The notes: generated by a model not told the origin, from the sequence alone. A stretch of 64,000 bases of DNA from Negativicutes bacterium (GCA_963665275.2 CAXXIN010000007.1:608001-672000); one strand, 5' to 3'; numbered from the stretch's first letter, positions 41,068 to 63,286 are shown. Made by a program: numbers and translations.

Positions 41068-41233
41068 CTTACTTCCTCCTTGTTGTTATGTGTTTCGCTA
41101 GATACAATAATCCTCTACCTTATTTCTATATCGTAGAATTTCCTTTGATTTAGCTTTGTTTACAAATCTTTTTCAAAGAATTTTTGAATACAATTTGAAA
41201 TAGGATTTAAAACTGCAAATTACGAGGTGGCAT

Positions 41234-41920
41234 ATGAAATTATTGCTGGTTGACGATGAGATAAAACTCCTGGAAGCACTTTCACATACATTGAAAAAAT
41301 CCGGTTATGTAACAGATACCGCTGCTGACGGAGATACCGGCCTGGAACTGGCAATGAGCGGAATATACGACATTATCATCCTTGATCGTATGTTGCCTGG
41401 GCGGACCGGCATGGATATACTGAGGGAAATTCGACAACATTCCATTAACACGCCGGTACTGTTCCTGACCGCACGGGATTCGTCCGAAGATCGTGTAACG
41501 GGGCTGGATGCGGGCGCCGATGATTATCTGGTGAAGCCGTTTTCCAAAGAAGAACTGTTGGCCCGTCTGCGGGCTCTGACCAGACGGCAAACCAAAGACC
41601 TTACTGAAAATACCATAACCGCCAACAATTTGACGCTCAATCCGATGCATTGCGAAGTAACTCACAACGGGGAGACGATCAGGCTCACGGTTAAAGAGTC
41701 ATTACTGCTCGAATTGCTGATGCGAAATGCCGGCCAAGTTATCACAAAAGAGCGAATCCTGTATAAAGTCTGGAGTTTTTCTTCGGACATAGAGATTGCC
41801 AACGTCGATTTATATATCCACTATCTGAGGAAAAAATTACCGGGTCATTGCATCCGAACCATTCGCGGCGTCGGATACTGTCTGCAGGAGGACGATAATG
41901 TTTCGCAAACTGTTACTTAA
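41234..41920 (+). CDS. OmpR-family response regulator (RR1)
   Basis: LLVDDE, IILDRMLP, FLTA, GADDYLVKPF, VDLYIHYLRKK, RGVGY. Confidence 0.95.
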   Translation: MKLLLVDDEIKLLEALSHTLKKSGYVTDTAADGDTGLELAMSGIYDIIILDRMLPGRTGMDILREIRQHSINTPVLFLTARDSSEDRVTGLDAGADDYLVKPFSKEELLARLRALTRRQTKDLTENTITANNLTLNPMHCEVTHNGETIRLTVKESLLLELLMRNAGQVITKERILYKVWSFSSDIEIANVDLYIHYLRKKLPGHCIRTIRGVGYCLQEDDNVSQTVT

Positions 41921-43265
41921 ACTGACAGTGCTAAATGCCAGTGTCATAGGGATCCTGTTTTGCGCCCTGATTACCGGAGCCTACCTGTTTGCCCAGTATG
42001 ACTTAAACCGACACGTAGAATTCTTTCTTTCAAAAGTTGCAGCCGACATCAACGCCGGTCGACGTCCGCCAATGTTTCCCGGGCCTCCTGGTAGCGGCCC
42101 GACCAAGGACAGCTCTTTGGATTCAAGTTCAGGTTTCCCGCCTGATTCACCTGATCCATCCGGTCCTCCGCCACCGGGACTGCCGTTCGGCCCCCCGGAA
42201 GAACCCCGTGAAGGAGAAATGCCTCGGCCAACACTATTTTATGCCAAGCTGGATTCAACTGGCGCCATTGTCTCCACCTCGGCATCGTTGCCGCTTGCCA
42301 AGGACCAACTTGAAGAATTGGCGCAAGTGGTTGTCCAGAGACCTAAACCCAGTGGTCAGGTAACTTTTCAAAATATCGTATATTTTTATCATGTCACTGC
42401 ACGAACGGACTCTCCCGGACAACTGCTGTTGTTCCAAAACTTCGAGAGGGAGCGGGATGTCTTCCGCACAATAATGACCGCCCTGGTAGTCATCGGCGTG
42501 GTTTGTTTTATCGCCTCCTTGTTCGGCAGCCTATTTCTTGCGCGCCGGGCCATGAAACCGATTCAAAAATCCTGGACGCAGCAACGCGATTTTTTGGCGG
42601 ATGCCTCTCACGAACTTCGCACTCCGTTGGCTGTAATTCAGGCCAATCTGGATGTGATTCAAAGCAATTCCGACGAACTCGTCGCAGAGCAAACCCAGTG
42701 GATGAATAACATTGATGAAAGCGTCAAAGCGATGGCTTCTCTGGTTGAATCTCTGCTTTTTCTTGCGCGGATTGACTCACAGCAACACCCTCTCGACAAG
42801 AAACTGTTTTCACTGGACCAGGCAATCGCCACTGCGGTAGGGCCCTATAAACTCCTGGCCGCAACAAAAAAAGTCAGCCTTACGACTGACTTGGAGCAAA
42901 GCTTGGATTTTTATGGCGACGAAGGACGAATCAAGCAGGTTGTCGGCATTTTGCTCGACAATGCCATACGTCACACAACCGAAGGTGGCAGTGTCAATGT
43001 TGTGCTAAAACAAATCAACAAAAGTGTGCAACTCTCAGTATCCGATACGGGCGAAGGGATTCCATTGGATCAACTGAACAAAATATTCGAACGTTTTTAT
43101 CAAGTCGATCCCGCACGTAACAAAGGGGGCACAGGACTCGGACTGTCCATTGCAAAATGCATCGTGGAAAACCATGATGGGGGCATTCAGGCAAGTAGCA
43201 GCCCCGGCTCCGGCGCCAGTTTTTTTGTCCGCTTGCCCCTCGCAGTTCAACATCCGCTCAAATGA
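41898..43265 (+). CDS. Sensor histidine kinase with proline-rich extracytoplasmic segment (HK1)
   Basis: Two TM helices; DASHELRTPL, LLDNA, DTGEGI, GTGLGL. Confidence 0.95.
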   Translation: MFRKLLLKLTVLNASVIGILFCALITGAYLFAQYDLNRHVEFFLSKVAADINAGRRPPMFPGPPGSGPTKDSSLDSSSGFPPDSPDPSGPPPPGLPFGPPEEPREGEMPRPTLFYAKLDSTGAIVSTSASLPLAKDQLEELAQVVVQRPKPSGQVTFQNIVYFYHVTARTDSPGQLLLFQNFERERDVFRTIMTALVVIGVVCFIASLFGSLFLARRAMKPIQKSWTQQRDFLADASHELRTPLAVIQANLDVIQSNSDELVAEQTQWMNNIDESVKAMASLVESLLFLARIDSQQHPLDKKLFSLDQAIATAVGPYKLLAATKKVSLTTDLEQSLDFYGDEGRIKQVVGILLDNAIRHTTEGGSVNVVLKQINKSVQLSVSDTGEGIPLDQLNKIFERFYQVDPARNKGGTGLGLSIAKCIVENHDGGIQASSSPGSGASFFVRLPLAVQHPLK

Positions 43266-43292
43266 TCCACTGGCAAAATTCATTCAAGCCCA

Positions 43293-44036
43293 CTATCGCA
43301 AGTATCCGTAAGGAATGCTTCGGGTCATAACACAAAATAGTCGTTGCTCTGATTTGTCCGCCAAGTGTTGTGTTCCAAACAACGCTACTTGCAATAAGGG
43401 ATTCTCCTCGTGATCGGCGCCCTTACGCAATTTATCCAGCAATTCTTTACCGCTCTTTGTGGGTCCAGACATCTCATACAAAATGATTCGGCGTCCTAAA
43501 ACCGCCAGCAGAGGAACGGTCAGCACCAATAGCCATTTTTCTGTTCCCTCATAGTAATTCATGAACCTCAGACTGCCTGCCACGATTAAGCAAGGAGCTA
43601 TTACCGACATTACCCACTGCCAGCGGGCCGGTGTTTTCCACCAGCCCGCTTGTTGCATGTTTTCTTCGATAGCCCGCAAGCTTTCAACCAACCGGCGCCG
43701 AGTTCCCCGCAGCGTTCGCACATTGCCCTGGATCGCCATGAATGCCTGCACAGCATCAGCTTCCATTTGCGAAAGTCCTACTCCTTGCACCGGCAATACC
43801 TGCACCAACAGCTTTCGACTCGGCCCGCCAGGTTTCAGTTCTATGATTTTTCGTTCGTGCAACTCGAAAATCACCGTCTCGACAACCGCGCCCAGCCCAC
43901 CTCTGAGCAAGGCTACTTCCAGGGCTTTAGGACAAAAAGAGTCCGTCCGCCGCCTTCGGCGACTTCGTCGAAGCAGTAGAACGGCAAACCCAATAATAGC
44001 TCCCACATAAAACAAATACATAATATACGGGTACAT
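43293..44036 (-). CDS. Membrane protein, TIGR04222-domain-like
   Basis: N-terminal TM, ALLRGG...L....I, two TMs, PT..G..LL and VALFG pattern. Confidence 0.55.
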   Translation of the reverse strand: MYPYIMYLFYVGAIIGFAVLLLRRSRRRRRTDSFCPKALEVALLRGGLGAVVETVIFELHERKIIELKPGGPSRKLLVQVLPVQGVGLSQMEADAVQAFMAIQGNVRTLRGTRRRLVESLRAIEENMQQAGWWKTPARWQWVMSVIAPCLIVAGSLRFMNYYEGTEKWLLVLTVPLLAVLGRRIILYEMSGPTKSGKELLDKLRKGADHEENPLLQVALFGTQHLADKSEQRLFCVMTRSIPYGYLR

Positions 44037-44066
44037 GCTTAAATTAAACCATCCTGAAAATTCGCC

Positions 44067-44948
44067 TTATTTTATGTCGTAACTACCCAACACACTGATC
44101 TTCAAAGCGGAGGCATGCTTGGACAGCACCTCGCCAAGCGCTTCGCGCCGCCCATCGCCATCCAGTTCCACAACAAATATATATTCACCCAGCAGTGTCT
44201 TGGCCGGCCGATCGTGCACCGAAACCAGTTTGTAACCTGCTTTTTCCACATCGCGCAAAAATCCAGGAAAAGCAGCGGCAGGCCCCTGCGCGGTCAATGC
44301 GGTCCGCGTTTGGCCGAACTTTTGAAAAGGCTTAAGGGTCACGATCCAAAACCGGGTAACATTCGTTTTGGTCACTTCGATCTGTTTGGCCATCACGTCC
44401 AGTTTATAAGTAACCGCAGCCTGAGGCGACGCAATGGCCGCGACAGATTTATCGCCGGTTTCCGCGACTTTCCGAGCACCTTCAGCCGTGCTGGAAACTT
44501 CAATCAGTTTTGCTTCCGGCAGATTTACCTTCAGCCAGTCTTTTCCCTGCGCGATCCCTTGCGGGTGAGACAAAATTGTTTTAATGTCACTCAGTACAGT
44601 CCCTGGAACCACCATCAAGGTCTGCCTGATTGGCAAATTGACTTCACCGACCACCACAAATGCCGGATCGCTGATGACCCCGTCCAAATAATTGTACACC
44701 GGGCCGCCGACCGTATTTTCGATGGGCACAACTGCATACTGAAACTCACCTGATTTCACGCCAGCCAATGTTTCCGGCACCGTTTTCATCGGTACGAAAG
44801 TCTCTTTGTCACCAAAAAATAATATGGACGCCTCTTCAGTATAGGTTGCCGCAGGCCCCAGATAACCAACACTCGCGGAAACCGTGCCTGAAAGCAGTAG
44901 GATCATCGCTGCAAGAACCGCGAACACTTGAACGGAAACTTTTTTCAT
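44067..44948 (-). CDS. PheA-type prephenate dehydratase domain protein with N-terminal signal peptide
   Basis: YLGP..TYTEEA, VVPIENTVGG, SHPQ, SSTA, NVTRF; degenerate ACT domain; leader MKK-hydrophobic-VSA. Confidence 0.85.
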   Translation of the reverse strand: MKKVSVQVFAVLAAMILLLSGTVSASVGYLGPAATYTEEASILFFGDKETFVPMKTVPETLAGVKSGEFQYAVVPIENTVGGPVYNYLDGVISDPAFVVVGEVNLPIRQTLMVVPGTVLSDIKTILSHPQGIAQGKDWLKVNLPEAKLIEVSSTAEGARKVAETGDKSVAAIASPQAAVTYKLDVMAKQIEVTKTNVTRFWIVTLKPFQKFGQTRTALTAQGPAAAFPGFLRDVEKAGYKLVSVHDRPAKTLLGEYIFVVELDGDGRREALGEVLSKHASALKISVLGSYDIK

Positions 44949-44995
44949 CTGATTAATCCCTTCCTTTTCTACTTTTCTACCGGATTATCTTGAGA

Positions 44996-46439: not shown

Positions 46440-46475
46440 ACAGCCACCGGCTCTATCGTAAGCACCCTAATGTTT

Positions 46476-47282: not shown

Positions 47283-47391
47283 GCTCCCAATCCTCTTTTC
47301 TCCTTGCTTATCTTTCAATACCAGCGTATATTCTTCGCTTTTTCCGGCCAAAATCCCTGCCCGCTTCGGCGGTAGGTTCAATTGTTCTATG

Positions 47392-47431: not shown

Positions 47432-47458
47432 AATGAGACTGGATTGATTCAGTTTGAG

Positions 47459-50521: not shown

Positions 50522-50572
50522 ATCTTAAGTATGCCTTTGAATTGTTACAGCTTTGTTACAGCTTGTTATACA
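50522..50572 (-). promoter_or_regulatory. Response-regulator box (TGTAAC repeats, 11-bp period) and -10 for the exporter operon
   Basis: TGTATAACAAGCTGTAACAAAGCTGTAACAA-N8-CATACT; close copy at 52840-52890. Confidence 0.75.
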
Positions 50573-50684: not shown

Positions 50685-51353
50685 ATGCAAAATAGAACAA
50701 TATTGATTACCGACGATGAGCTGCGTATTCGCAAACTAGTCGCAGATTTTCTTCTTCATGAAGGGTACACGGTATTAGAAGCAGAAAATGGGCGAATTGC
50801 ACTGGAGATTTTAGAAAAAGAAAAAGTCGACCTCGTGATACTCGATGTTATGATGCCTGAACAGGATGGCCTCAGTGTATGTCGCGAAATACGCAAAAAG
50901 AGTTCCATCCCGGTAATCATGCTCACAGCCAAAAGCGAAGAAATCGATCAGCTCTTTGCTTTCGAGTTGGGAGCTGACGAGTATGTCACCAAACCCTTCA
51001 GCCCCAAAATACTAACGGCGAGAGTCAATGCCTTGCTGCGACGTCTGGAAACCGAAACGCCGCTTAACACCAATGGACTGGTGATTGATACTGAATCCAG
51101 ACAGGTATCCATTGACGCGCAGCCACTGGAACTAAGTCCCAAAGAATATGACTTGCTCGCCTATTTATTCGATAACAAAGGAAAAGCGCTCAGCCGTCAA
51201 CAAATTTTGAATCAGGTTTGGAACTATGATTATTTTGGCGATCTTCGAACAGTTGACACCCACATCAATCGGTTGCGAACCAAGCTGGGCGAAAAAAGCT
51301 CCTTGGTTCAGACGATTCGTGGATATGGTTATCGTTTCGAGGTAGAAAAATGA
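50685..51353 (+). CDS. OmpR-family response regulator (RR2)
   Basis: TDDE, ILDVMMP, MLTA, GADEYVTKPF, RTVDTHI..LR, RGYGY. Confidence 0.95.
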   Translation: MQNRTILITDDELRIRKLVADFLLHEGYTVLEAENGRIALEILEKEKVDLVILDVMMPEQDGLSVCREIRKKSSIPVIMLTAKSEEIDQLFAFELGADEYVTKPFSPKILTARVNALLRRLETETPLNTNGLVIDTESRQVSIDAQPLELSPKEYDLLAYLFDNKGKALSRQQILNQVWNYDYFGDLRTVDTHINRLRTKLGEKSSLVQTIRGYGYRFEVEK

Positions 51354-52837
51354 AGTTCTCGATTCGAACCCGACTTTTTCTGACCCTAAGCGCACTACTC
51401 CTGTTTTTTGTGCTGATGTCGTTGAGCCTGACCCGGCTCGGTCTGGAAAAATACTATATGTGGCAGAAGGAGGACCTCCTGATTGCGACCAGCACTGCCA
51501 TAGACGATCTATACCGCGGCAACCCTGCCGACATCGCAATCGAACTTAAGCGAGCCGCCAATGCGTTGGGGGCCGGCATCATCATTTCCGACCGCAACGG
51601 GCAGCTGAAATATACTTCGTTCGGCCCCTTCATTCATCAAAGTTCCCCGGGGAATGGCCCTGCTTCTTTTCAGTTTCCTCCCCCGCCGCCCCATATCACC
51701 AAAAGCAGAAAGACGATTGACGACCGGACTGTATTGGAAATGCAGAGCGATCCCGATATCAAAATCGACTTTATGGTCATTGACCGACGACTGAACAACG
51801 GAGACACTTTGCACATGCGCCAGACCGTTGCGCCGATTTCCGAGAGCGCGGCTGTCGCTTCCCATTTCATGGTTTTCACCGGCTTGCTGTCTATCCTTGC
51901 CGGATGTATTTGGGCGTTCTTTTTTGCAAAAAGGTTTACCCTGCCGATCCAAAATCTCAACCGCCTCGCTCAACGCATGGCCTTGCTGGATTTTTCGCAA
52001 AAAGCTTCCATTGAGCGTAATGATGAGATCGGTGCTCTTGGTCAGAGTATCAATCATCTCTCCGACCAGCTGGATACGGCCATATCCGAACTCAACCAAA
52101 AAAACCGCCAATTACTGGCGGATGTGGAAAAAGAACGTCAGCTGGACAAAATGCGAAAGGACTTTATCTCCAGCGTTTCGCATGAACTAAAAACACCGCT
52201 TTCCCTTATTCTCGGTTATGCAGAAGGACTGAAGGAAAATGTGGCGCAAGATCAACAAAGCAAAGATTACTATTGTTCCATCATTATGGATGAAGCAGGA
52301 AAAATGGACCGCTTGGTGCATGATCTATTGAACTTGTCCCAAATCGAATCGGGGGGATTTCAACTGAATCGTGAGACCTTCAATTTGGAAGTTTTGCTTG
52401 GCGAATTGGCCCAAAAATATCAGCCCATATTGACGGACAAAGGGGTTGTCTTGGACCTACAATGCTCGACTGATTTGTTCGTTTCTGGCGACCGATTGCG
52501 CATTGAGCAGATTTTGTCCAATTATTTGAACAATGCCATCGAACATGCTACCGGTGAAAAAAAGATTAGTTTGTCGGTTGCCGCTGCAGAAGATCCTGAA
52601 CACGTCCGCGTCACTGTATTTAACTCAGGCTTCCCCATTCCGCAAGACAGTCTGGAAAAAATCTGGACCAGTTTTTATAAAGTTGACAAATCCCGAACGC
52701 GCGCCCGCGGTGGTCAAGGGTTGGGACTATCGATTGTCCGCGCGATTCAGGAGCTGCATGACAATCGCTACGGTGTGGACAACCTGGAATCAGGAGTTCG
52801 ATTTTGGTTTGACATTGATAAGGCAAAAACTATATAA
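51350..52837 (+). CDS. Sensor histidine kinase with HAMP domain (HK2)
   Basis: Two TMs, RNDEIG HAMP, VSHELKTPL, NNA, FYKVDKSR, GLGL; PPPPP in the sensor loop. Confidence 0.95.
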   Translation: MKFSIRTRLFLTLSALLLFFVLMSLSLTRLGLEKYYMWQKEDLLIATSTAIDDLYRGNPADIAIELKRAANALGAGIIISDRNGQLKYTSFGPFIHQSSPGNGPASFQFPPPPPHITKSRKTIDDRTVLEMQSDPDIKIDFMVIDRRLNNGDTLHMRQTVAPISESAAVASHFMVFTGLLSILAGCIWAFFFAKRFTLPIQNLNRLAQRMALLDFSQKASIERNDEIGALGQSINHLSDQLDTAISELNQKNRQLLADVEKERQLDKMRKDFISSVSHELKTPLSLILGYAEGLKENVAQDQQSKDYYCSIIMDEAGKMDRLVHDLLNLSQIESGGFQLNRETFNLEVLLGELAQKYQPILTDKGVVLDLQCSTDLFVSGDRLRIEQILSNYLNNAIEHATGEKKISLSVAAAEDPEHVRVTVFNSGFPIPQDSLEKIWTSFYKVDKSRTRARGGQGLGLSIVRAIQELHDNRYGVDNLESGVRFWFDIDKAKTI

Positions 52838-52839
52838 AG

Positions 52840-52890
52840 TGTATACAAACCTGTAATAATCCTGTAACAAATTCCCTTCATAATAAAGAT
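52840..52890 (+). promoter_or_regulatory. Second copy of the TGTAAC-repeat promoter
   Basis: TGTATACAAACCTGTAATAATCCTGTAACAA-N8-CATAAT. Confidence 0.75.
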
Positions 52891-52925: not shown

Positions 52926-53450
52926 ATGAACATCAATTGGAACAAAAAACTCGCAAGCGGCTTGGTACTCAGCAGCCTTCTACTATCGCTGGCTGTCGCC
53001 ATGGCGGCAGAGCCGCCAAACGCCCCTCCCGGACCCAACCCGGACGCCGTCCAGACCGGGAAGCCACGCCCAGAGGATCATGCCCAACGCCTACGCGCCA
53101 CACTGAAAAAACTGGTCGAAAAAAAGATTATAGAAGCCGACCAGGCGCATCGTGTAATATTGTTCTTTCACCAAAAAGATACCGAACGCAAAGCCGAATG
53201 GGATAAAATCCAAGCGTTAAGCGCAGACGAACGGGAAACTTATATGCAGCAACAATGCATACAACGGTGCCAGAAACGACCAGATTTGGTCAAGGACCTC
53301 ATGGAGGGAACCGGGTTGACTCAGGATCAGGCAAAAGCAATAGCCGATGAAATGCGTCCCCCACATGGTCCTGTTCCTGGCGGCCCTGGCGGCCCCGGCG
53401 GACCTGGCGGACCCGGACCCGAAAAACCTGACAACCCCACCGCGCCCTGA
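52926..53450 (+). CDS. Exported helical protein with Pro/Gly-rich termini
   Basis: Signal peptide ending AMA; GGP x4 tail encoded by a 9-bp tandem repeat at ~53379-53420. Confidence 0.8.
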   Translation: MNINWNKKLASGLVLSSLLLSLAVAMAAEPPNAPPGPNPDAVQTGKPRPEDHAQRLRATLKKLVEKKIIEADQAHRVILFFHQKDTERKAEWDKIQALSADERETYMQQQCIQRCQKRPDLVKDLMEGTGLTQDQAKAIADEMRPPHGPVPGGPGGPGGPGGPGPEKPDNPTAP

Positions 53451-53511: not shown

Positions 53512-53940
53512 TCATACAGTCCTGCTGAAACCACGAGATACCCCTTGGTACCAACGGCCGATATAGGCATTTCGAATATTCCGTGTAACCCGGTTGCCTC
53601 CCAAATGAACTGCAATTTCGTTTTTCTTTTCTTTCGCCGTTTGAACAAGCTGCATTTGAAGCTCTTTGATTTGATTTTGAAGTTCTTGAACCGCCTTGAA
53701 CCTTGCCTGAACAACAGCGCATCCTTGCCATTCCTGTTCGTCCATCTCCTTTTGCGCCATTATTGTTAAATCCTTCAACAGTTGTCCTCGTATTTGCAAT
53801 AGCCGCTTCAGTCCGCGCAATGATTTATGTTCGCCTTGAAGGAAACGAATCTGCCGTTCCGTATTATCCGCAATGGCTTCCAAAAGAACTATTTTTCTAT
53901 TCAACAGGTTCATATACTCGACTTGTGTCATCATAATCAC
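53512..53940 (-). CDS. Flagellar export chaperone-like protein (FlgN/FliT-like)
   Basis: Coiled-coil, basic; overlaps the fliD stop (ATGA); C-terminal AY.......G. Confidence 0.6.
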   Translation of the reverse strand: MIMMTQVEYMNLLNRKIVLLEAIADNTERQIRFLQGEHKSLRGLKRLLQIRGQLLKDLTIMAQKEMDEQEWQGCAVVQARFKAVQELQNQIKELQMQLVQTAKEKKNEIAVHLGGNRVTRNIRNAYIGRWYQGVSRGFSRTV

Positions 53941-55871
53941 TCATCCGAACTCATTAAAGAGTCAATATAGGAACTTTGTGAATTCATCTCTTCGATCGCT
54001 TCTTCCATTGCAGAGAACTTTGCTTCCCATCGTTCCCGCAATGCATCCAAGCGATCTTCTTCTTTTTCAATTCGTTCTTCATAATCAGTGATTTTAGTAG
54101 TTAATGAATTATCGGTATCACTGCCGTCGCTATCCATTCCTGCCAACTCCAATAACCGTCCCTTATTTCCCGCTGAATCAGTAGATGTGGAAACATAATC
54201 GGATAAAATATCATAGAATCGTAGGGCGATCCCTTCTTCTTCGTAACGCGTTTCTCGTTCAGCACTGGTCATAGTCCTCACTGCCGAGTTGGTGGAATAT
54301 GAGGTCGACTTTTGCGCAAACAGCGCCTGTACTGCGGAAGCGTCTTCTTCAATTGCCGCCGTCAGTGCATCCTCGTCAATGTATAATTTGCCATTTTCAT
54401 CATACGTGCCTGAAGTAATACCAATTGCTGATAGCGACAACGAAGAATCCGATACCGAATCCATTAAGGCAAGTCGAAAATTGCGGAGCATATCACTCAG
54501 CGTATCATCTCCCTCAAGTAATCCTGTTTTTGCTTTCGCATTCCATTTTTCGATCTCGGTGTCGCTCATTTCCGCTTCCTCATCGTCAGTCAACGGAAGA
54601 TAATCGCTGTCATAATTTTCATCTAGTGTGTCGTTGATTGATTCAATCAATGTATTATACGCAACAACAAAATTGTCAATCAAATCATAAACGGCATCCG
54701 TATCTTGCTCAACATCCACCGTGACTTCTTCGGTTGTCACATCGGCAAGTTTATAAGTTACGCCATCCAGTTCAATCGAATTGGAGCTGCGAGTAACTTT
54801 CGTCCCATCGTAGACCATGATCGCGTCAGTTCCCTCTGCGGCCGTCCCACCTAACAAACTGGAGATAAACGAACTGCTGTCGCTATCCGCTACCGTCAGC
54901 ATCTCGCCGGCTCCCGTGTCATCAGATGTCAAAACCAGCATATCCGTCAGTTCATCATATTTGAGCGTTGCGCCACAATCCGAATCATTAACCGCATCAA
55001 TAACATCACCCAATGTTTCATCTTCCGCGAAAGTAAAAGAGGTGCCATTGATGGTAAACGTTACTTCATTATCGCCACTCGTTGAATTCGCAACGAAAGT
55101 CATTGCCGTATCTAATTGCGCAGAGATTTCCGCCAGTGTCGAATCCTCGGTAACTCTATTCGAAGTAACATCCGTTGAAGCAAATCCTAAATTTGTCAGC
55201 GCTCCATCCGATGTGCTATCCGCAATCGAAATCGACGACACCCCGCTGTCTGTAGCGGCAGTAAAAGTCAAAACACTTGCGCCATCAACCGTAGTAGTTC
55301 CGACCGTCACTTTGCCGTTACCGACTGCAGTGTCAACTGCATCCTGCAAAGAATCTGCATCGGTTACGGAAGAATCAATCGTTACCGTATAATCAGTTCC
55401 ATCCACCGTAATAACAAAGCTTTCTCCCACAGCGCTGGTATAATCCGCTGCGCTGCTGGCCGTGATGTCTTCGGATAACGTTGAGCTGCTGCTGATTGTC
55501 TCCGCCGTCGCCAACTGAGTCACTTCAATCGTGTGGGAACCAGCCTCCGCATCCACACCGGCAGTAGCCGTCACAGCCGAAGTATCGGAACTGGTTGTAT
55601 CAAATTGCAAATAGTTTGCTTGTTTGATCAGGCTGGATGAGGATGTGGATGAAAAATAGGTATCGACGAACTCCGACAAGTCGTCAATGATATCCCGATA
55701 CGCTTCCTGCTTCCATTCTGTCAGCTGCAATTGCTGATTTAACGAATCCAGTTTTGAACTTTCGGCATCGACCAGTTCATCAACAAGTGAAGCGGTGTCG
55801 ATTCCCGAAGCAAGTCCCGATATGGCAGTACTGCCGCTGCTGGTAGTGTAGGTGGTAATGCTGCTTGACAT
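53937..55871 (-). CDS. fliD: Flagellar filament cap protein (acidic, Ser/Thr-rich variant)
   Basis: ISGLASGIDT..LV..L, V.QLA, SN.I..DGVT, F...YN, PLTD.....M...EIEKW..KAK.GLL, KF.AME. Confidence 0.92.
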   Translation of the reverse strand: MSSSITTYTTSSGSTAISGLASGIDTASLVDELVDAESSKLDSLNQQLQLTEWKQEAYRDIIDDLSEFVDTYFSSTSSSSLIKQANYLQFDTTSSDTSAVTATAGVDAEAGSHTIEVTQLATAETISSSSTLSEDITASSAADYTSAVGESFVITVDGTDYTVTIDSSVTDADSLQDAVDTAVGNGKVTVGTTTVDGASVLTFTAATDSGVSSISIADSTSDGALTNLGFASTDVTSNRVTEDSTLAEISAQLDTAMTFVANSTSGDNEVTFTINGTSFTFAEDETLGDVIDAVNDSDCGATLKYDELTDMLVLTSDDTGAGEMLTVADSDSSSFISSLLGGTAAEGTDAIMVYDGTKVTRSSNSIELDGVTYKLADVTTEEVTVDVEQDTDAVYDLIDNFVVAYNTLIESINDTLDENYDSDYLPLTDDEEAEMSDTEIEKWNAKAKTGLLEGDDTLSDMLRNFRLALMDSVSDSSLSLSAIGITSGTYDENGKLYIDEDALTAAIEEDASAVQALFAQKSTSYSTNSAVRTMTSAERETRYEEEGIALRFYDILSDYVSTSTDSAGNKGRLLELAGMDSDGSDTDNSLTTKITDYEERIEKEEDRLDALRERWEAKFSAMEEAIEEMNSQSSYIDSLMSSDE

Positions 55872-55892
55872 TGTCGGTTCCCTCCTTTAATG

Positions 55893-57008
55893 TCAGGATA
55901 AGTAATCGACCAGAGATTTGGTGATGACTTTCGCACCGACCGATAATGATGCGTCATAAATCGTTTGGGCTGTGGCATATTCCGTCGTAGCCACGGAAAG
56001 ATCCGAATCGATATTTGAGCTAAGCAATCCAGTATAGGTTGTGTAGTCACTGGTTAAGCGTGACGAACAAGTCTCCACATAATTCATGCGCGCTCCCAAA
56101 TCCGACGTTTCCGTGGAAATCGACGCCAAATTGGCATCAATCTCATCCAACAATCCATCCATAGTGAATGTTGTCGTAGTGGTTCCTGTTGCCAAGCCGG
56201 TAGTCGAGTCAACCACGACCGACTGATAACTGGTTTCACCACTCAGTCCGAGTAGCAGTTTGTCAATCGTATCAAATAAATTACCGTTTCCCGTCCCTGT
56301 CACACTCTGGCCTTCCACATTGACAGCCGTCTCACTGCTGTACCCGGTATTGTACTTGATTTCCTGCGCGGTTGTACTGGTGTAGATATTACTGGTCGTC
56401 GTTGACCCGCTCGTTGTCGAAGCATAGGTATTGTAGGCATCCACTAACCCTGTTGAGTCAACCGAACTTGATACCACACTATATAAACTGAGATAGCTTC
56501 CTTTAAATGTCGTTTGTTCCAGCTCTGTTGCATCTCCAGTAGTAGAATCCGTTACAGTAGTCGTCGCTGAATCATATGGTGCCTCATCCGTGGAGTATCC
56601 GCCGAAAATATAGCGTCCTGCATACTGTGTATTCATCAATTCAACGATACTGTCTTTTATTTCGGATACTTCCGCCGAGATGGCCGCAAGTTCAGTATCA
56701 TCCAAAATATCGCTGGAAGCTTGTGATGTTAGATCACGAATTTGCTGCATTGCATCTGTCAGAGAATCCAGTGTACTCGACGTCACTTTCATCCATGAAG
56801 TAGCATCAGTGGCGTTCGACTGATACTGCTCAATTTTCGCTATGACACTGCGATATTGCAACGTCTTGGTCGCCGCAACCGGATCATCCGAAGCTTCCTG
56901 AAACTTCACGCCGGTCGACGTTTCTTCTTGCGCATCACTCAAACGCCCCATATTATCATTAATATTTCGGATTACACTTTGGGTCATCATGGTGTTTGTG
57001 ATCCGCAT
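55893..57008 (-). CDS. flgL: Flagellar hook-filament junction protein FlgL
   Basis: MRITN.M, SDDP, MNT.YAGRYIFGG, LGARMN, SLVDYL. Confidence 0.92.
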   Translation of the reverse strand: MRITNTMMTQSVIRNINDNMGRLSDAQEETSTGVKFQEASDDPVAATKTLQYRSVIAKIEQYQSNATDATSWMKVTSSTLDSLTDAMQQIRDLTSQASSDILDDTELAAISAEVSEIKDSIVELMNTQYAGRYIFGGYSTDEAPYDSATTTVTDSTTGDATELEQTTFKGSYLSLYSVVSSSVDSTGLVDAYNTYASTTSGSTTTSNIYTSTTAQEIKYNTGYSSETAVNVEGQSVTGTGNGNLFDTIDKLLLGLSGETSYQSVVVDSTTGLATGTTTTTFTMDGLLDEIDANLASISTETSDLGARMNYVETCSSRLTSDYTTYTGLLSSNIDSDLSVATTEYATAQTIYDASLSVGAKVITKSLVDYLS

Positions 57009-57037
57009 CATTGTCTCCACCCTCTTTCGTTCATCTT

Positions 57038-58588
57038 TTAACCGTCGACCATATCCAGCATGGTCTGATACACTTCTTGCCACATACTAACGGCTTTGGC
57101 CGAAGCGGCAAAAGATTCTTGGTACAGAACTAAATTGGTAGTTTCTTCAGTGGTTGACACGCTGGATACAGATGCACGCCTGGTATCTATCGCACTCAAA
57201 ATTGTGTCATGTCTATCTGTTTGCGTTGTTGCATAGGAATTGGCTGTGCCTAGCGTTGCCGTCATGGATTCCAAATAATCGCTCAAGCTGCAATTGCCGA
57301 AAACCTCTTGCGAGTCGCAAAGATCAATCAACTCCAGCATATTTTCCGCATTCTCCGTCTCTGTCGTATCAGATGACGAAGAGGCTGCAATATTGGATAC
57401 ATCACTTAGCACCTCATATGACAGTGAAATATTCGCCGCCGTTATCTTGGAGTAAGCTGCGGCAGTTTCTTCATCGGTGGGAGTTGTCGTTCGATCCAGG
57501 AAACTTGTGGAACTCGTTTCATCGTAAGTGAAAAAGCAAATTCCTGTATCGCCATCGGAATCATACCCGTCGGCATGACCGGAATAACTGCTGGTTCCTT
57601 CATTAAAGGCTTCAGCCAAAGTTTGGGCGTACTCATCCAGTTGATCCATATAATAAACGATGCCCTTATAGTCTCCATTTTCTCCCGTACCATCGCGCAG
57701 TTCCAGCAATGCCCCCAGTTGCCCGCTTTCCGGAGTTACTGAATCGCCGGTATCACTCCACACCACCTCATACATACCGTTGTCTGTACTGGTGGAATCG
57801 ACCACTTCATTGCATTCCAGCGTCCGATAGTTACTGCCGTTGACCAACGTGCCGCCATCAAGTGTAATAACCAGCGTTGTAACTTTTTCTCCCGAAACGG
57901 ACGTACCTGCCGAAGTTTCCGTTACTTCAACATTCACTAAACTTGATAACTTATCGATCAAGAGATCTCTCTGATCTTCCAGATCACTGGCGTCACTACC
58001 GCCGACCTGCGCTTTCTGAATCTGTTGATTCAAAGCGGCAATCCGTTCACTATAGGAATTGATCTCCGATACGGAAGTTTTGACGTCTTCGTTCAAAGAA
58101 TCCCGTTCACTTGACAGAGATGTCGCCATACTGTTCAAATAATCGCAAACCGCTTGCCCGGCCTGTTGCAAACAAGTCCGGGCATCCGTGCTGTTGGGGT
58201 CGGTAGAAACGTCTTCCAATGCGGCGGAGAAGTCACTCATAACCGTGTCGAACCCATCTTCGCTGCTGATGTCTTCCAGTACGTCTTCCAACTCACCCAG
58301 CGTCGTCGACTTGGTTTCCCATGCTATCGCCACACTGTTTTCGTCCCGGTACTCGGCATCAATCAACGCATCTCGTTCTCGAGAAATCGAAGTAATTTCA
58401 GTTCCAGAACCGGTGCTGGCGCTTGAAATATATATAGCTGCCGGGCCTATCGCCGACTGAGTAACCGTTTTGCGGGAATAACCGTCCGTATTGGCATTAC
58501 TAATATTATTGGTCGCAACCGACATCGCCGCCTGACTGGCATATAATCCAGTCGTGGCCGAATATAATCCGGTAAAAGTCGAAGACAT
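57038..58588 (-). CDS. flgK: Flagellar hook-associated protein FlgK (copy 2)
   Basis: STF.GL..A.TGL.ASQ, NNISNANT.GYSR, LEDQRDLLIDKLS, SVSSVS..EE..NL..YQ. Confidence 0.92.
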   Translation of the reverse strand: MSSTFTGLYSATTGLYASQAAMSVATNNISNANTDGYSRKTVTQSAIGPAAIYISSASTGSGTEITSISRERDALIDAEYRDENSVAIAWETKSTTLGELEDVLEDISSEDGFDTVMSDFSAALEDVSTDPNSTDARTCLQQAGQAVCDYLNSMATSLSSERDSLNEDVKTSVSEINSYSERIAALNQQIQKAQVGGSDASDLEDQRDLLIDKLSSLVNVEVTETSAGTSVSGEKVTTLVITLDGGTLVNGSNYRTLECNEVVDSTSTDNGMYEVVWSDTGDSVTPESGQLGALLELRDGTGENGDYKGIVYYMDQLDEYAQTLAEAFNEGTSSYSGHADGYDSDGDTGICFFTYDETSSTSFLDRTTTPTDEETAAAYSKITAANISLSYEVLSDVSNIAASSSSDTTETENAENMLELIDLCDSQEVFGNCSLSDYLESMTATLGTANSYATTQTDRHDTILSAIDTRRASVSSVSTTEETTNLVLYQESFAASAKAVSMWQEVYQTMLDMVDG

Positions 58589-58611
58589 AATTCACCTCCA
58601 GAAGCTACGCA

Positions 58612-60111
58612 TCACCTTATCAGTGAAATAATATCCGATACCAGGCCGTCCACAAGACTTAGATATTTCGAGGATGCACTATAGGCGGTTTGGTACTCAA
58701 TCATTTTAGACAATTCATCCTCCATAGAAACACTCGATACTGACAATCGATCGGTGTTGGTTTGCGTGGTCAGACTTTCCTGCGTCGTCACCAGTCCTGC
58801 CGTCGTTTCGTTTTCCGTCGCCAGCCAGGAAACAACGGCTGTATAATAATCGTCGACACTCTTGGAAAGCCCATCGACCTCCAACAGATCCGAATCTTGC
58901 AGCCCGGCAATCGCAGTCGCGATTCCCCCGTCACTGGCCTCGCCGGTCGCAGATACCGCCAACAAGGACGAGTCTGAAGACAAGGCTGAATTGACCTGGA
59001 TATTGCTGATGTTTAATCCTGTTCCGTCGCCTGTTCCGCTGTTGATGAAGAACACCGTCGTATTGGTGTTGGTTGTGTCGGTTTCACCAAGTTCAACGCC
59101 GGAACTAAAAAGATCATTCACTTTGTAGGCAATCGTCGTGATCAAAGCATTCAATCCTTGTCGCAGTTCTCCGATCGAACTGGCGGATGAGGGGTCGAAA
59201 TCATACGGAAGATCTGTACTGGAAATAGTCAGCACGGCGCTCTGATCAGCGTCTTCCATCTGGGCCAAAATACTGCCGGAAGAAAAGCCCACAGTTTTGC
59301 CCGTTTCCGCCCAAGTCACCGTCAACGGATCGTTCGCTGATCCGTCTCCAGACGCAACCAATGTATGTGTCTTATCATCACTGACCAGGTACACGCCGCC
59401 GATCAAAACTTGATATGTTCCATCAGTCTGTACGTTGACTGTAACGTCTGCCAAATCAGACATTTGATCAACCAAGGTGTCACGCTGATCCTCCAGATCG
59501 TTGGCTGTATATCCTTTGGTTTCTGCAAGTTTGATTTGCGAATTCAAATCAGCTACCTGTGTCGCCAAGTCGTTTAACGTATCCACCGATTCGTAAACAT
59601 TCGCCGCACATTCTTCCTGCAGTTGCTGCAACTGAGAATCCATTTCCGACACTAAATCCACCAAGCTGGTTGCCGATTCCAGAACCGTATCCTGTGCACT
59701 CGTACTGGAAAGATCTTTCGCGAGCTCTTCCCAACTGGAAAAAAAATCTTCCATGGCCAATTGTACGCCTGTTTCCTCTGCTGAGTCATCCGATGTAGAG
59801 GTTGAAAAATCGCCCAGCAAAGCCTCCGCGCTGCTCAAAGTATCGCTCTTGGCTTCATAGTAATACAGGTCCGCATTTTCACTGCGATAGGTCCGATCCA
59901 GCATTGTGCTTCGCAGGCGCGTAACCGAATCCAAAGCAACGCCTGTCCCCAGAACCGCCGACGAAGTGACAATTTCGGAAGTATTCGTCCGTTGCCTGGA
60001 ATATCCCGTTGTATTGACATTCGCCAAATTATGGCTGATCGTCTCCAAAGCTGTTTGGTTGACGGACATTCCTGTATAACCCAGACTATATGAGCCGATT
60101 GTAGAAGACAT
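58612..60111 (-). CDS. flgK: Flagellar hook-associated protein FlgK (copy 1)
   Basis: HNLANVNT.GYSRQ, NDLEDQRD.LVD, SVSSVSMEDE...MI.YQ.AY. Confidence 0.92.
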   Translation of the reverse strand: MSSTIGSYSLGYTGMSVNQTALETISHNLANVNTTGYSRQRTNTSEIVTSSAVLGTGVALDSVTRLRSTMLDRTYRSENADLYYYEAKSDTLSSAEALLGDFSTSTSDDSAEETGVQLAMEDFFSSWEELAKDLSSTSAQDTVLESATSLVDLVSEMDSQLQQLQEECAANVYESVDTLNDLATQVADLNSQIKLAETKGYTANDLEDQRDTLVDQMSDLADVTVNVQTDGTYQVLIGGVYLVSDDKTHTLVASGDGSANDPLTVTWAETGKTVGFSSGSILAQMEDADQSAVLTISSTDLPYDFDPSSASSIGELRQGLNALITTIAYKVNDLFSSGVELGETDTTNTNTTVFFINSGTGDGTGLNISNIQVNSALSSDSSLLAVSATGEASDGGIATAIAGLQDSDLLEVDGLSKSVDDYYTAVVSWLATENETTAGLVTTQESLTTQTNTDRLSVSSVSMEDELSKMIEYQTAYSASSKYLSLVDGLVSDIISLIR

Positions 60112-61517
60112 CAGCTCACCATATTGATGACAGTTTGCATCATGTCATCAGACACAGTAATCAGTTTGCTTGCCGCCTGATACGCCCGCTCCGCTACCAT
60201 CATCTCCGCGAATTGAGATGATAAGTCCACATTCGATGCTTCCAGCGCCCCGGCGGTCAGGGAACCCGTACCTCCACTTCCTGCGACCACTGCGCCATCG
60301 TACGAACCGGAATTCGCACTTGCGGCATACAGACTGGTCCCGACTTTATCGAGACCACCGGCATTGTTGAAACTAGCCAACCCGATCTGAGCCAGCACCT
60401 GTGTTTGATTATTACTGTAGACCCCGGTAATCGTACCATCGGAGCCGATAGAGTAACTCGACAGAGTACCGCTTGCGTACCCGTCGCTGGAATCTACGGC
60501 AATAGAACCCTCCGTATAGAGACTAACGGCAGAAACATCCATGGAAACTGTGAAATCATCGATGTTAACCAGCTTGTTGCCACTGGCGTCCGTAGCGGCT
60601 GCCATGCTGATGTCATAGGTCTTAGAAAAAGTATAAGTTTCAGGAGTTGATCCCGTTACTGTCGGATCCGAACTGTAATAAGTCCCTGTCAGCAATTTCC
60701 CCGTTGAGTCAAATGCCAGATAGCCGCTGCCGGAAGCGTTGACATTATCGGCTGAATCAGACGCCTCCCAATATACGGTCGTAACAGTCGTTGCCGTGCC
60801 ATCCTCGTCATAAACTGCAGCTGAATAGCATTTTGTAAAATCCACATCCACATCATATTCATTGCCGAGCGCATCATACACCGATATCGTGGCCGAAGTG
60901 TCCGCGTCCAAATCAGTTGTAGCGCCGATATCAAAAACACTGTCCCCCTGCGCCTCTGCCGTCGAATCCAGTGTGCCATCCATCGTCGCCGTGGTTGTTT
61001 TTTCAGGCGCGATCACCTGCTTGCTGGATCCGTCGGCATTATAAAAAAGATTAATGCCTGAAACCGCGGCCTCCGTATCGATCACCTGATCCGCATCCGG
61101 TTCCCAACCGCAGACTTTATATCCGTTCACATTCAGGTTCCCCTCCGCATCCACGCCGAAATTACCGGCCCGCGTGAAATAGTAACTTCCTGTGGTGTCG
61201 CCTTCCACAATGAAGTACCCGCCCCCGTTGATCGCCACATCAGTGTCGACTCCGGTACTGGTAATGCTGCCACTCGTCACATTTGTCGATATTGCGGCCA
61301 CGGATACGCCGAGGCCGATCTGCTTGGCATTGGTGCCGCCGGTGTTGGAAGTTGTGCTTGCTCCCGAAGACGAGCTAAGGGTCTGACTAAGCAAATCAGA
61401 AAAAGTGGCGGTCTGACTTTTATAGGCCACGGTGCTCACATTGGCTAAGTTGTTCCCGATGACATCCAGTTTGGTCTGTTGCGCGTTCAGCGCCGTTAGT
61501 GCCGCATAAACCGACAT
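60111..61517 (-). CDS. flgE: Flagellar hook protein
   Basis: DVIGNNLANV.T.AYK, D.AI.G.GYF, TRAGNF, YDALG, LEASNVDL..QF..M...RAYQA. Confidence 0.93.
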   Translation of the reverse strand: MSVYAALTALNAQQTKLDVIGNNLANVSTVAYKSQTATFSDLLSQTLSSSSGASTTSNTGGTNAKQIGLGVSVAAISTNVTSGSITSTGVDTDVAINGGGYFIVEGDTTGSYYFTRAGNFGVDAEGNLNVNGYKVCGWEPDADQVIDTEAAVSGINLFYNADGSSKQVIAPEKTTTATMDGTLDSTAEAQGDSVFDIGATTDLDADTSATISVYDALGNEYDVDVDFTKCYSAAVYDEDGTATTVTTVYWEASDSADNVNASGSGYLAFDSTGKLLTGTYYSSDPTVTGSTPETYTFSKTYDISMAAATDASGNKLVNIDDFTVSMDVSAVSLYTEGSIAVDSSDGYASGTLSSYSIGSDGTITGVYSNNQTQVLAQIGLASFNNAGGLDKVGTSLYAASANSGSYDGAVVAGSGGTGSLTAGALEASNVDLSSQFAEMMVAERAYQAASKLITVSDDMMQTVINMVS

Positions 61518-61628
61518 CTTTCTTCATCCTCCCGACAACTCTATTTCCTTATTGATTTCCGAAACAGAAGCCGGCCTCCCTGTAAGGGTCCAGCCGAGTT
61601 CTCGGTATCCCTTGTTTTGACGAACACT

Positions 61629-62045
61629 TTAAGTTGCCGTCCCGTTGACGGAGGTAATGTCGCTATAACTTACCGACGTACTGCCGATCGTAAGAGAAGC
61701 TTTCCCGCTGCTGACAGTCACCGCCGACACCGTTCCGCTGCCCGTGGTCGTCGTTCCTGAGTCATCTGTAGTGCTGTAGGATACATCCTGTCCTATCAGA
61801 CTAAAGGCCGAAGTTGCTTCTGCTGTGCTGCTCATGGAGGATAGCTGTTCGAGTGTGCTCATCTGCGCCAATTGAGAAACCAGTTCCGTGTTTTCTACCG
61901 GATTCGTCGGGTCCTGATTTTGCAATTGTGCGCACAGAAGCGTAATGAAGGATTCAAAACTGGCCAGACTGCTAGTGGCTGTAGTGCTGCTAAGAGTGCT
62001 GGACGAGGCCGTAACCGTACCTGTACTTGAAATGCTTGTACTCAC
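61629..62045 (-). CDS. flgD: Flagellar hook capping protein
   Basis: F.TLL.AQLQNQDPTNP....E.VSQLAQ.S.LEQ; GTG 62045 after AAGGAG. Confidence 0.92.
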   Translation of the reverse strand: MSTSISSTGTVTASSSTLSSTTATSSLASFESFITLLCAQLQNQDPTNPVENTELVSQLAQMSTLEQLSSMSSTAEATSAFSLIGQDVSYSTTDDSGTTTTGSGTVSAVTVSSGKASLTIGSTSVSYSDITSVNGTAT

Positions 62046-62401
62046 CTTACTCACTCCTTATCTTTTTCGCTCTTGTTTTTTGGAGGATCAGTCATGCTTT
62101 CCCGATGACTATAACTTTCAGATATTTTTCTTCATTTGGTATTTCCACATCTCATATTAGATTTTTGTTTGATTATTTGCTGGAATAGATTTATATTCTC
62201 TTTGAAAATAAAAATATGCTCCGCAATAAGACCCAAAGCCCTATTCTACAGCTTGTTCTCGAACATTATAAATTTTGAATGATTTTTTCATAGCTAATAA
62301 AAATTAAATGATTTTCTAATATATTCCCCCTATAATTCAAATGGAAAGCTAAGATGGCAAATTTTACTACATGGACGTAGCCACACTTGGGGGAGACTCT
62401 C

Positions 62402-63058
62402 GTGAAACTTCTTTTGGCGGAAGACGAGCCGAAACTTGCCAGTGCCTTGTCTTATCTGATGAAGAAAAACGGATACATCGCCGATGTTGCTTCCAATGGA
62501 GAAACGGCCCTGGAAATGGCTGCTACCGGAGTCCATGACATGTTAGTTTTAGACCGGGCATTGCCGCTCCGTGATGGGCTATCGGTTCTCAAAGAATACC
62601 GGTCTTTGGGTTTTGATAACCCAGTCCTCTTTCTGACCGCCCTCGACTCCCTTCAGGATCGCGTCGAAGGCTTGGATGCCGGCGCTGACGATTATATGGT
62701 CAAACCCTTTTCGTCGAACGAGTTACTCGCACGAATGCGCGCTCTGACCCGCCGAATTGCTCCTGCAGATAAAATCAATTTTGTTATGGCGGCTGGCATC
62801 ATCCTTGATCCTTCACGCAGTGAAGCAAAAATCAGTGATTCCTGGATAAAACTGACGGTGAAAGAATCTATGATTTTGGAATTGTTGATGCGCAACTTTG
62901 GGCAAGTCATCCCGACTGATCGTATCCTGGAAAAAGTTTGGGGAGAACAGTCCGCCGTATATCGGCCTTATGTACACTTGTACATTCATTATCTGCGAAA
63001 AAAGCTCCCAGCCATTTGTTTAAAAACCATTCACGATGTTGGCTATTCTCTGCAATAA
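62402..63058 (+). CDS. Orphan OmpR-family response regulator (RR3), paralog of RR1
   Basis: GTG 62402; LLAEDE, VLDR, GADDYMVKPF, LTVKES..LELLMRN.GQVI and V.LYIHYLRKKLP shared with RR1. Confidence 0.93.
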   Translation: MKLLLAEDEPKLASALSYLMKKNGYIADVASNGETALEMAATGVHDMLVLDRALPLRDGLSVLKEYRSLGFDNPVLFLTALDSLQDRVEGLDAGADDYMVKPFSSNELLARMRALTRRIAPADKINFVMAAGIILDPSRSEAKISDSWIKLTVKESMILELLMRNFGQVIPTDRILEKVWGEQSAVYRPYVHLYIHYLRKKLPAICLKTIHDVGYSLQ

Positions 63059-63081
63059 TCATTCACCGAACCGCGTGTGCC

Positions 63082-63111
63082 GCGCAGAATTTTTTCTGCG
63101 CATTTTTTTTT
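63082..63111 (+). terminator. Intrinsic terminator of RR3
   Basis: GCGCAGAA/TTCTGCGC stem plus T9. Confidence 0.8.
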
Positions 63112-63286
63112 ACCACCAATATTTTTTGATAAAAATTTTTATGGGTATTCGATTTCAAATATTCTTCTAATTTTTTACATCGAACAAATAATTAGCCGGG
63201 GAAGGTTGAGGTGATTCCAGTGAACTAAGCAGCAGAAAACACCAGGGTAAGCCACCGACTCATGAGCTGGGGTAAGCTCAAAAAGG

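Follow-up and report, generated by a model that had tools for sequence, protein, structure and literature searches.

Paired hexamer boxes at the promoters of two sister response regulators and of a spare hook and filament gene set

The window, a stretch of 64,000 nucleotides from a Negativicutes bacterium (GCA_963665275.2, CAXXIN010000007.1; C7:608001-672000 of a 3.97-Mb Bacillota assembly with ~50% GC), harbors the response regulator (RR) RR1 with its histidine kinase (HK) HK1, the orphan regulator RR3 and a spare set of hook and filament genes. Five genes, namely RR1, RR3, the spare flagellin, the spare flgD and rep (a small-protein gene), have conserved promoter elements in the form of paired hexamers one DNA turn apart. 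It is rather probable, on the sequence evidence, that RR1 (with HK1) and RR3 activate themselves and the spare hook and filament genes via these boxes. The source genome is labeled G000; other G and L labels denote genomes and loci of relatives, except L001 and L002, which are loci of G000.

The boxes and the two regulators

All five promoters consist of two hexamers separated by five bases and followed by a -10 element. The initial annotation had described these five instances, and each was recovered at its position with matching letters. The RR1 promoter (41161..41194, plus strand) comprises TACAAA (41161-66), TTCAAA (41172-77) and, after N11, TACAAT (41189-94). An additional exact box pair covers this -10 on the opposite strand (41183..41199, minus strand), of which the orthologues keep only part. 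At RR3 (62303..62336, plus strand), ATTAAA (62303-08) and TTCTAA (62314-19) are followed after N11 by TATAAT (62331-36). The other three promoters have N10. The rep promoter (41128..41160, minus strand) contains AACAAA (41160-55), ATCAAA (41149-44) and CGATAT (41133-28), with a third in-phase word, TTCTAC, at 41138-41133. The flgD-operon promoter (62141..62173, minus strand) combines ATCAAA (62173-68) and ATCTAA (62162-57) with GGAAAT (62146-41), and the spare-flagellin promoter (63154..63186, plus strand) TTCAAA (63154-59) and TTCTAA (63165-70) with CGAACA (63181-86). A TTCAAAG word is located 33 bp, or three turns, upstream of the proximal flgD boxes (62199..62207, minus strand). A sigma-70 scan called no sigma-70-type -35 at the RR1 or RR3 promoters. 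In agreement with the proposal that the boxes take the place of the -35, they stand N10 to N11 before the -10 where no -35 was called. Direct repeats with a period of 10-11 bp, ending ~10 bp before the -10 of a promoter without a -35, represent the class II geometry.

The flgD / RR3 / flagellin layout is also present in G001, G005 and G009 of the same genus, with RR3 orthologues. Alignment of the two intergenic regions of the four species yielded 142 invariant columns out of 424 (33%) and 136 out of 348 (39%). The longest of the invariant runs are formed by the boxes. Runs of at least five invariant columns comprise the flgD box TTAGATTT (plus strand) and the upstream word TCTTTGAAA, the RR3 box TTTTCTAA and -10 CTATAATTCAAA, and TTTCAAA and TTCTAA of the flagellin promoter, where TCGA at N10 is kept in four of four species. 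Further runs are leader and start words, GCTAAG and TGAAA on the RR3 side and AAGGA, TTCAAGGAGGAA, CATGAT and ATCAA on the flagellin side, as well as TGCAAT and TTTTTT, located at the RR3 stop codon and in the T-run of its terminator. The flgD boxes follow WTCWAA-N5-ATCTAA in all four species. Counted by eye, they stand 33 bp from the TTCAAAG word in G000 and G001, compared with 44 bp in G005 and G009; the difference is an 11-nt indel, so the helical phase is kept. The rep promoter geometry recurs with (c)CGATAT in G004 and G018, and with CGATGC or CGATAC at N10-11 on contig C20 and in G011.

RR1 (41234..41920, plus strand; Response_reg 3e-30, Trans_reg_C 4.7e-21) and RR3 (62402..63058, plus strand; Response_reg 5.9e-23, Trans_reg_C 1.9e-17) are OmpR/PhoB-family response regulators. 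The HK1 gene (41898..43265, plus strand) overlaps RR1 and encodes HisKA and HATPase_c domains and a Pro-rich extracytoplasmic loop. A nearly identical recognition helix had been noted in both regulators and was substantiated: they are paralogues with 121 of 218 identical residues (56%) and a common LYIHYLRKKL helix (VDLYIHYLRKKLP vs VHLYIHYLRKKLP). The start of RR3 had been placed at TTG 62387; alignment with the orthologues gives GTG 62402 instead, resulting in 218 aa. The phospho-acceptor Asp and the T/S and K of the pocket are in register (ILDRMLP/VLDRALP, LFLTA and VKPF; read by eye from alignments to BasR and DNA-binding response regulator D). Solved structures provided generic family matches only, with BasR and PhoP as the nearest (E about 1e-44). 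Helix comparison assigned RR1 and RR3 to a single subfamily with a distinctive recognition helix of the type (A/S)N(V/I)DLYIHYLRKKL. RR3 orthologues read PYVHLY, and orphans beside distant flagellins xT(V/I)N(L/I)Y. An RR1-based scan of genome contigs returned 80 loci with L044 as the only close relative (62% identity); the other loci contained unspecific OmpR-family genes and were left out. An orphan regulator adjoins the kinase pair in L044 and G022. This adjacency in two distant relatives is the sole hint that HK1 may transfer phosphate to RR3.

The following mechanism is proposed. RR1 and RR3 would act as PhoB-like class II activators. Phosphorylated head-to-tail dimers are predicted to bind two hexamers one DNA turn apart (WWCAAA / TTCHAA), and the boxes, ending 10-11 bp before the -10, would substitute for the -35. 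Sigma-A-type -10 elements (TACAAT, TATAAT) at the regulators' own genes would result in positive autoregulation. A second gene group, comprising the spare flagellin, the flgD-flgE-flgK-flgK-flgL-fliD operon, the rep and EF-hand proteins and a FlxA-like protein, would use CGA-type -10 elements recognized by the single FliA/sigma-28. Since the boxes flank the place of the absent sigma-28 -35, two inputs would be needed, FliA activity from the one basal body and the HK1 signal. A broader reading can be put forward only tentatively. It holds that an OmpR-family regulator replaces the sigma-28 -35 contact in a two-input promoter class, by which a two-component system picks the external parts of one basal body (hook cap, hook, junctions, cap and glycosylated filament). 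A CsrA/FliW-type leader would couple flagellin export to synthesis of the orphan regulator at the level of translation, and the whole would form a signal-controlled exchange module across several Bacillota families.

Site classes, sigma factor and background

Upstream regions of 30 RR1/RR3 homologues were searched with the anchor TTCHAA-N11-TAnnnT only. The anchor was present in 19 of them, and in 19/19 the free hexamer 11 bp upstream read nnCAAA or nTAAA. The autoregulatory consensus of the subfamily is WWCAAATGnWTTCHAAGAAT, and the pattern WWCAAA-N5-TTCHAA-N11-TAnnnT. A position weight matrix (PWM) was built from autoregulatory sites of other genomes only and scanned over 7.9 million positions of G000. 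It ranked RR1' of contig C20 first, RR1 second and RR3 tenth; the fourth rank was taken by a site 7 kb beyond the window, before an EF-hand protein which shares the N-terminal module of rep. Distant flagellin promoters in L044, G022 and G039 have the box-N5-box-N10-CGA geometry, and the flgD promoters of G022 and G039 have box-N5-box-N10 followed by CGAAAA or CGATAC. The CGA variants at these distant flagellin and flgD promoters are CGAAAA, CGATCT and CGATAC. Genes for RR and HK proteins lie within a few kb of the spare module in L044, G011, G022, G023, G031 and G039. A spare-type FliD (at least 48% identity) was found in eight genomes (G000, G001, G005, G011, G022, G023, G031 and G039), all eight of which contain the RR subfamily. 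The suspected tie between regulators and flagella has gained support, as the subfamily is syntenic with a second flgD-flgE-flgK-flgK-flgL-fliD-flagellin module in several families.

Sigma-28 (FliA/SigD) recognizes a -10 of the GCCGATAA type with a CGA core and a -35 TAAA located 14-16 nt upstream of the -10 8-mer. G000 encodes one FliA (C9:81971-82612; TIGR02479, 252 bits vs a cut-off of 189.6). The main late operons, read directly, have near-canonical sigma-28 promoters without boxes: TAAA-N16-GCCGATAC at flaG-fliD, TAAT-N15-tGCGATAT at flgM and TAAG-N14-tTCGATAT at the main flagellin. The spare -10 elements have the core CGA(T/A)A in common with them and read taCGATAT (rep), ttCGATAA (FlxA-like) and atCGAACA (spare flagellin). 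In G000, no TAAA is located at the required distance from them; the spacer reads TATTC at the spare flagellin and GGTTT at the FlxA-like gene, and the TAAA of rep is two bases too close. The position of a sigma-28 -35 coincides with the N5 spacer between the boxes. This spacer is TTAAA or TAAAA in several relatives, and TAAA occurs at sigma-28 distance in L044, in G018, at the G022 flagellin and at the G039 flgD. A genome scan of AT-rich DNA for TAAA-N13-16-YCGATAW identified 16 sites, downstream of which motility genes were not evident, and gave no help in delimiting the sigma-28 regulon.

Composite box-N5-box-N10-CGA sites of G000 precede rep, the spare flagellin, an EF-hand paralogue and the FlxA-like gene (PF14282, 5.9e-10), which is located on the same contig 255 kb away. 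With N10 between box and CGA, the genome contains 7 matches, vs 1-4 (mean 1.7) with 13 other spacings. In 433,402 bases of related loci, the composite pattern matched 14 times, at five flagellin and six rep-family genes, one orphan RR, one glycosyltransferase and one unclear gene. Across 12 genus genomes, 8 matches were obtained (flagellin 4, rep 2, FlxA-like 2), the backward-read control giving 4; five genus genomes without the RR subfamily contained no match. A pairing of the boxes with two sigma factors had been suggested by the initial annotation. The suggestion fits the structural genes with CGA-type, sigma-28-like -10 elements and the regulators' own genes with TAnAAT, and fails for flgD. 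The chances are about even that the spare promoters are sigma-28 -10 elements made dependent on RR1 and RR3.

The strict pattern WWCAAA-N5-WTCWAA was found six times in the window, while 100 dinucleotide shuffles averaged 0.24 matches and never exceeded 2. Four of the five original sites match exactly, and the RR3 site has one mismatch. Allowing up to one mismatch, 14 matches compare with 6.95 expected, a number reached by 1 of 100 shuffles. The whole genome of 3.97 Mb contains 23 exact matches, six of them in the window. AT-matched background was defined as DNA with a GC content of at most 0.36 (152,491 bases) and gave a rate of 4.6e-5 per base outside the candidate promoters. Seven strict-pattern matches in the six candidate promoter regions (1,182 bases) compare with 0.055 expected from this rate, a figure which overstates the significance, as the pattern was derived from four of the scored sites. 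Because the pattern was read off its own sites, conservation is weighted above match counts. It had been cautioned that the motif is AT-rich and lies in AT-rich DNA; given the AT-matched count and the four-species conservation, base composition does not account for the boxes.

Several results weigh against the proposed activation by RR1 and RR3 via the boxes. The anchor is missing in 11 of the 30 upstream regions (L010, L011, L015, L039, both L044 genes, L127:9555, L139, L140-L143). Several of these are GC-rich and coding-like, so another gene may precede the RR at these loci. The foreign PWM ranked the flagellin site only 633rd among the scanned positions and gave flgD and rep less than 6 bits. 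A second PWM of 35 columns, derived from eight distant flagellar-type sites, returned 34 matches in G000, which included RR3 only and neither flagellin nor flgD nor rep. No boxes were found at the G031 flagellin or the G023 flgD. The RR subfamily also occurs where no spare FliD was detected by the query used, e.g. in the complete genome G018, and is therefore not dedicated to flagella. The flgD -10 reads GGAAAT or AGAAAC in the genus, without CGA, and the spare flagellin -10 agrees with the sigma-28 8-mer in only 4-6 of 8 positions. The strict pattern was set post hoc from the sites scored by it, and the control of inter-box spacing was blunt (N4 5, N5 7 and N6 7 matches).

Failure of PWM transfer means that autoregulatory and structural-gene sites are related words in the same geometry and not one statistical motif. 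Of the regulon with one shared box proposed at the outset, the conserved promoter elements were retained; the data agree better with two related site classes, perhaps with two regulons, than with a single box. In its full form, the alternative of two regulons restricts RR1 (helix ANVDLY...) to its own gene, HK1 and the rep-type genes, with CAAAG-type boxes, and gives RR3 (helix PYVHLY...) its own gene, the spare flagellin and the flgD operon, with TCTAA-type boxes; HK1 need not signal to RR3. In all four species, the second box is TTCTAA or ATCTAA at RR3, flagellin and flgD, vs T/ATCAAAG at RR1 and rep, and no PWM transferred between the site classes. The distant flagellin-adjacent orphans differ from kinase-linked RRs at the same helix position (D to N or H). 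However, kinase-linked RRs of G013, G016 and G035 autoregulate via TTCTAAG or TTCCAAT, so the fourth base is no clean discriminator. FlxA-like and G018 promoters combine TTCAAA boxes with CGATAA or CGATAT, and the remainder of the helix is identical in RR1 and RR3. A strict division into two regulons is considered unlikely, yet it is the strongest of the alternatives.

The boxes at CGA-type promoters may also represent an extended sigma-28 promoter or the target of another AT-box protein (CodY-like or nucleoid), leaving RR operators only at the regulators' genes. In several relatives, the TTAAA or TAAAA spacer leaves 14-15 nt between TAAA and the -10 8-mer, which is where the consensus places a canonical sigma-28 -35, and the failed PWM transfer agrees with such a separation. 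Yet the main flagellar sigma-28 promoters of G000 have no boxes, and its spare promoters have no TAAA at the -35 place. Hexamer word, 11-bp period and N10 distance match those at the RR genes, and the composite pattern is missing from the five genus members without the RR subfamily. This explanation is improbable. A chance outcome of AT-rich intergenic DNA is most implausible: although the motif is low in information and was defined post hoc, and the inter-box control shows no sharp optimum between N4 and N6, the conservation data contradict this reading, as the boxes form invariant islands of the four-species alignments, recur at analogous genes of other families, exceed the AT-matched expectation and, in all eight genus-wide composite matches, stand at flagellin, rep or FlxA-like genes. 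Activation by RR1 and RR3 through the paired boxes is the preferred reading.

Readings of the CGAA and TTCAAAGAAT words as Spo0A and CodY boxes (compared with the consensus by eye) were rejected; they left the CGAT variants and the 11-bp periodicity unexplained. Elsewhere in G000, four tandem 11-bp units (ATCAAAGTAGT; C14:58250-58288) with three strict-pattern matches precede an open reading frame (ORF) that is phage-like by its N-terminus, probably an unrelated operator array matching by accident. Three in-phase boxes, TGAAAA, TTCAAA and ATCTAA (C19:218408-218435, minus strand), are located ~85 nt before a 948-aa subtilisin-like ORF, without CGA at N10. This gene is a possible further target.

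Leaders and gene content of the locus

The RR3 leader (62337..62401, plus strand) contains the hairpin CTAC-ATGGAC-GTAG (62367-62380) and a G-rich Shine-Dalgarno sequence. A two-hairpin leader at fixed distance is present in RR3 and 10 related RR genes (L127, L128, L139, L140, L141, L044, L041-L043). The first hairpin, CCARGGAnGG, is located ~51-54 nt and the second, ACAnGGnnGT, ~31-37 nt before the start, followed by the Shine-Dalgarno sequence AAAGGrG. In the genus, the second hairpin has GGA and fits the CsrA SELEX word RUACARGGAUGU, with 11/11 core letters in G001, but the loop is GGT or GGC in L044, G022 and G039. One stem pair covaries from U-A to C-G. The RR leader may be a CsrA target or another RNA element. 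In the spare flagellin leader (63287..63329, plus strand), the hairpin GGAGTA-AGGA-TACTCC is followed by the Shine-Dalgarno sequence CAAGGAGGAA, a CsrA-type pair. This is the hag-type arrangement, with GGA in the hairpin loop and a second GGA at the Shine-Dalgarno sequence, and csrA is present in the genome; the main flagellin leader has the same layout. Rfam returned nothing relevant in 40900-64000 at E <= 1, and as wholes the RR3 and flagellin leaders fold no better than shuffles (z = +0.73 and -0.88).

Gene calls of the initial annotation were upheld by Pfam across the window. The spare hook and filament operon (53512..62054, minus strand; Pfam) comprises flgD (61629-62054), flgE (60111-61517), two copies of flgK (58612-60111 and 57038-58588), flgL (55893-57083), fliD (53937-55871) and an unnamed 142-aa ORF (53512-53940), all on the minus strand. 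This ORF contains an exact pair TTCAAA-N5-ATCAAA (53665-53681, minus strand), an internal site or a chance match. RR3 is followed by an intrinsic terminator (63082..63110, plus strand). The spare flagellin of 407 aa (63330..64000, plus strand) continues beyond the window end. Downstream of it, glycosyltransferase/TPR, radical-SAM and methyltransferase genes are located. Three large genes at L001 2656-8503 (C7:672656-678503, past the window) encode GT2+TPR, SPASM+GT2+TPR and GT2+methyltransferase+TPR proteins, which points to glycosylation machinery reserved for the spare filament. The spare filament proteins are very rich in Ser, Thr and Asp. The genome encodes one FlhA, one FliA and one CsrA and has a complete main flagellar locus elsewhere, with csrA and fliA beside the main flagellin. 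As FlhA is single, the spare cluster provides external flagellar parts only.

In the small protein encoded by rep (40513..41067, minus strand), the N-terminal module MNVSSV...SNSDGDTFELS is followed by a Pro-rich linker and two EAD10-like repeats (PF19954 EAD10, 1.1e-07). On C20, in G004 and in G011, homologues are arranged divergently to RR1-type genes. Members of this small-protein family (window 40513-41067; L002 9909-10580; L001 8669-9295) have the common N-terminus M(N/S)(V/I)SSV...SN(S/V)DGDTF(E/Q)LS and a Pro-rich linker. C-terminally they differ, with EAD10-like repeats in some and four EF-hands in another, and all are located behind box promoters. It may be speculated that these proteins are exported by the flagellar apparatus or act as signals for HK1, which has a Pro-rich sensor loop as well. 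A DUF2207_C-like membrane protein, below the Pfam cut-off, is encoded downstream of HK1 (43293..44036, minus strand) and adjoins HK1 in relatives too.

The pair RR2/HK2 (50685-52837) is unrelated to RR1/HK1. RR2 is 34% identical to RR1, and its own 11-bp repeats differ from the RR1/RR3 boxes: TTGTTACAGC starts at 50542 and 50553 and TTGTTAT at 50563 (window 50542-50572), before RR2. CCTGTAA starts at 52850 and 52861 (window 52850-52867), before the gene of a 174-aa secreted-looking Pro/Gly-rich protein (52926-53450). G039 and G001 have a homologue of this protein close to their spare flagellar modules as well.

Contig C20 (L002, 17,484 bases) carries rep'-RR1'-HK1'-membrane protein-fliD'-flgL'-flgK' and resembles the locus of G011. 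In three public runs it is covered by short contigs only, at a depth of ~2, while the contigs of the main genome are long and deep. A 294-nt stretch common to C20 and another sequence has a depth of 25-65 on long contigs which are loose-ended on both sides. A paralogous second copy within the genome was dismissed on the read coverage; C20 probably belongs to a minor related organism from the same samples, binned with the genome, and was therefore used as a relative.

Comparison with known systems

The pho box of Escherichia coli consists of two direct repeats with an 11-bp period ~10 bp upstream of a -10 element without a usable -35, and PhoB activates its own operon. RR1/RR3 boxes have the same repeat period, -10 distance, missing -35 and own-gene sites. 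Unlike PhoB, the word is WWCAAA/TTCHAA, two paralogous regulators are present, and half of the target promoters have a CGA-type and not a sigma-70-type -10. The operator mechanism is a conventional PhoB-like one, as direct-repeat operators are commonplace for OmpR/PhoB regulators. OmpR-family regulators of alternative or complete flagellar sets are CtrA, which acts on the second (fla2) flagellar system of Rhodobacter sphaeroides, and Rem/FtcR in Rhizobiales. These are systems of Proteobacteria with complete second sets or master regulators at sigma-70 promoters, whereas external parts only and sigma-28-like promoters are found here.

The flgM promoter of Bacillus subtilis is sigma-D-dependent. 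DegU~P acts positively at this late flagellar gene according to the available part of the source (PMC4793158, citing Hsueh et al. 2011), which is a likeness to the proposed role of RR1/RR3. In contrast, DegU belongs to the NarL family, has a different motif and controls an anti-sigma factor rather than structural genes. The hag leader of B. subtilis combines a GGA hairpin with GGA at the Shine-Dalgarno sequence, as stated in the available text (PMC7652899). To this extent, the sigma-D/Hag-FliW-CsrA system resembles the spare flagellin with its CGA-type -10 and its leader. Unlike hag, the spare set has the -35 TAAA replaced or flanked by regulator boxes, and a transcription-factor gene, RR3, has a similar leader.

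CmrRST of Clostridioides difficile comprises a kinase and two OmpR-family regulators; CmrR autoactivates and influences swimming (PMC12548384). CmrT has E53 in place of the phospho-acceptor Asp, and the CmrR site is an inverted repeat 40-102 bases upstream of the start site (PMC12548384). As far as the accessible part of this source goes, it is the closest motility-related analogue among the literature examined. A kinase with two OmpR-family regulators is also present here, and the order RR-HK-RR beside flagellin is found in G022. Differing from the system as described there, RR3 retains the Asp (VLDRALP), and the boxes are direct repeats adjoining the -10. The accessible part of PMC12548384 does not describe CmrRST as linked to a second hook and filament set; the distinction is made by description, not by sequence.

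A description of a system like that of the window was not found in the limited library searched. New elements are the spare hook and filament module as target, the pairing of a sigma-28-like -10 with boxes, and the CsrA-like regulator leader. The wiring is unusual: duplicate genes for external parts only (hook cap, hook, two junction proteins, FlgL, cap, and flagellin with glycosyltransferases) are linked to one kinase with two sister regulators, and the tie between regulator and spare module recurs in at least eight genomes of several families. The box-N5-box-N10-CGA geometry also precedes uncharacterised small proteins, i.e. the rep family, the EF-hand paralogue and the FlxA-like protein. 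If the proposal is true, the promoters would show clearly that an activator can stand in for the -35 contact of a group-3 sigma factor, and the module would exemplify a signal-driven rebuilding of hook and filament on one motor.

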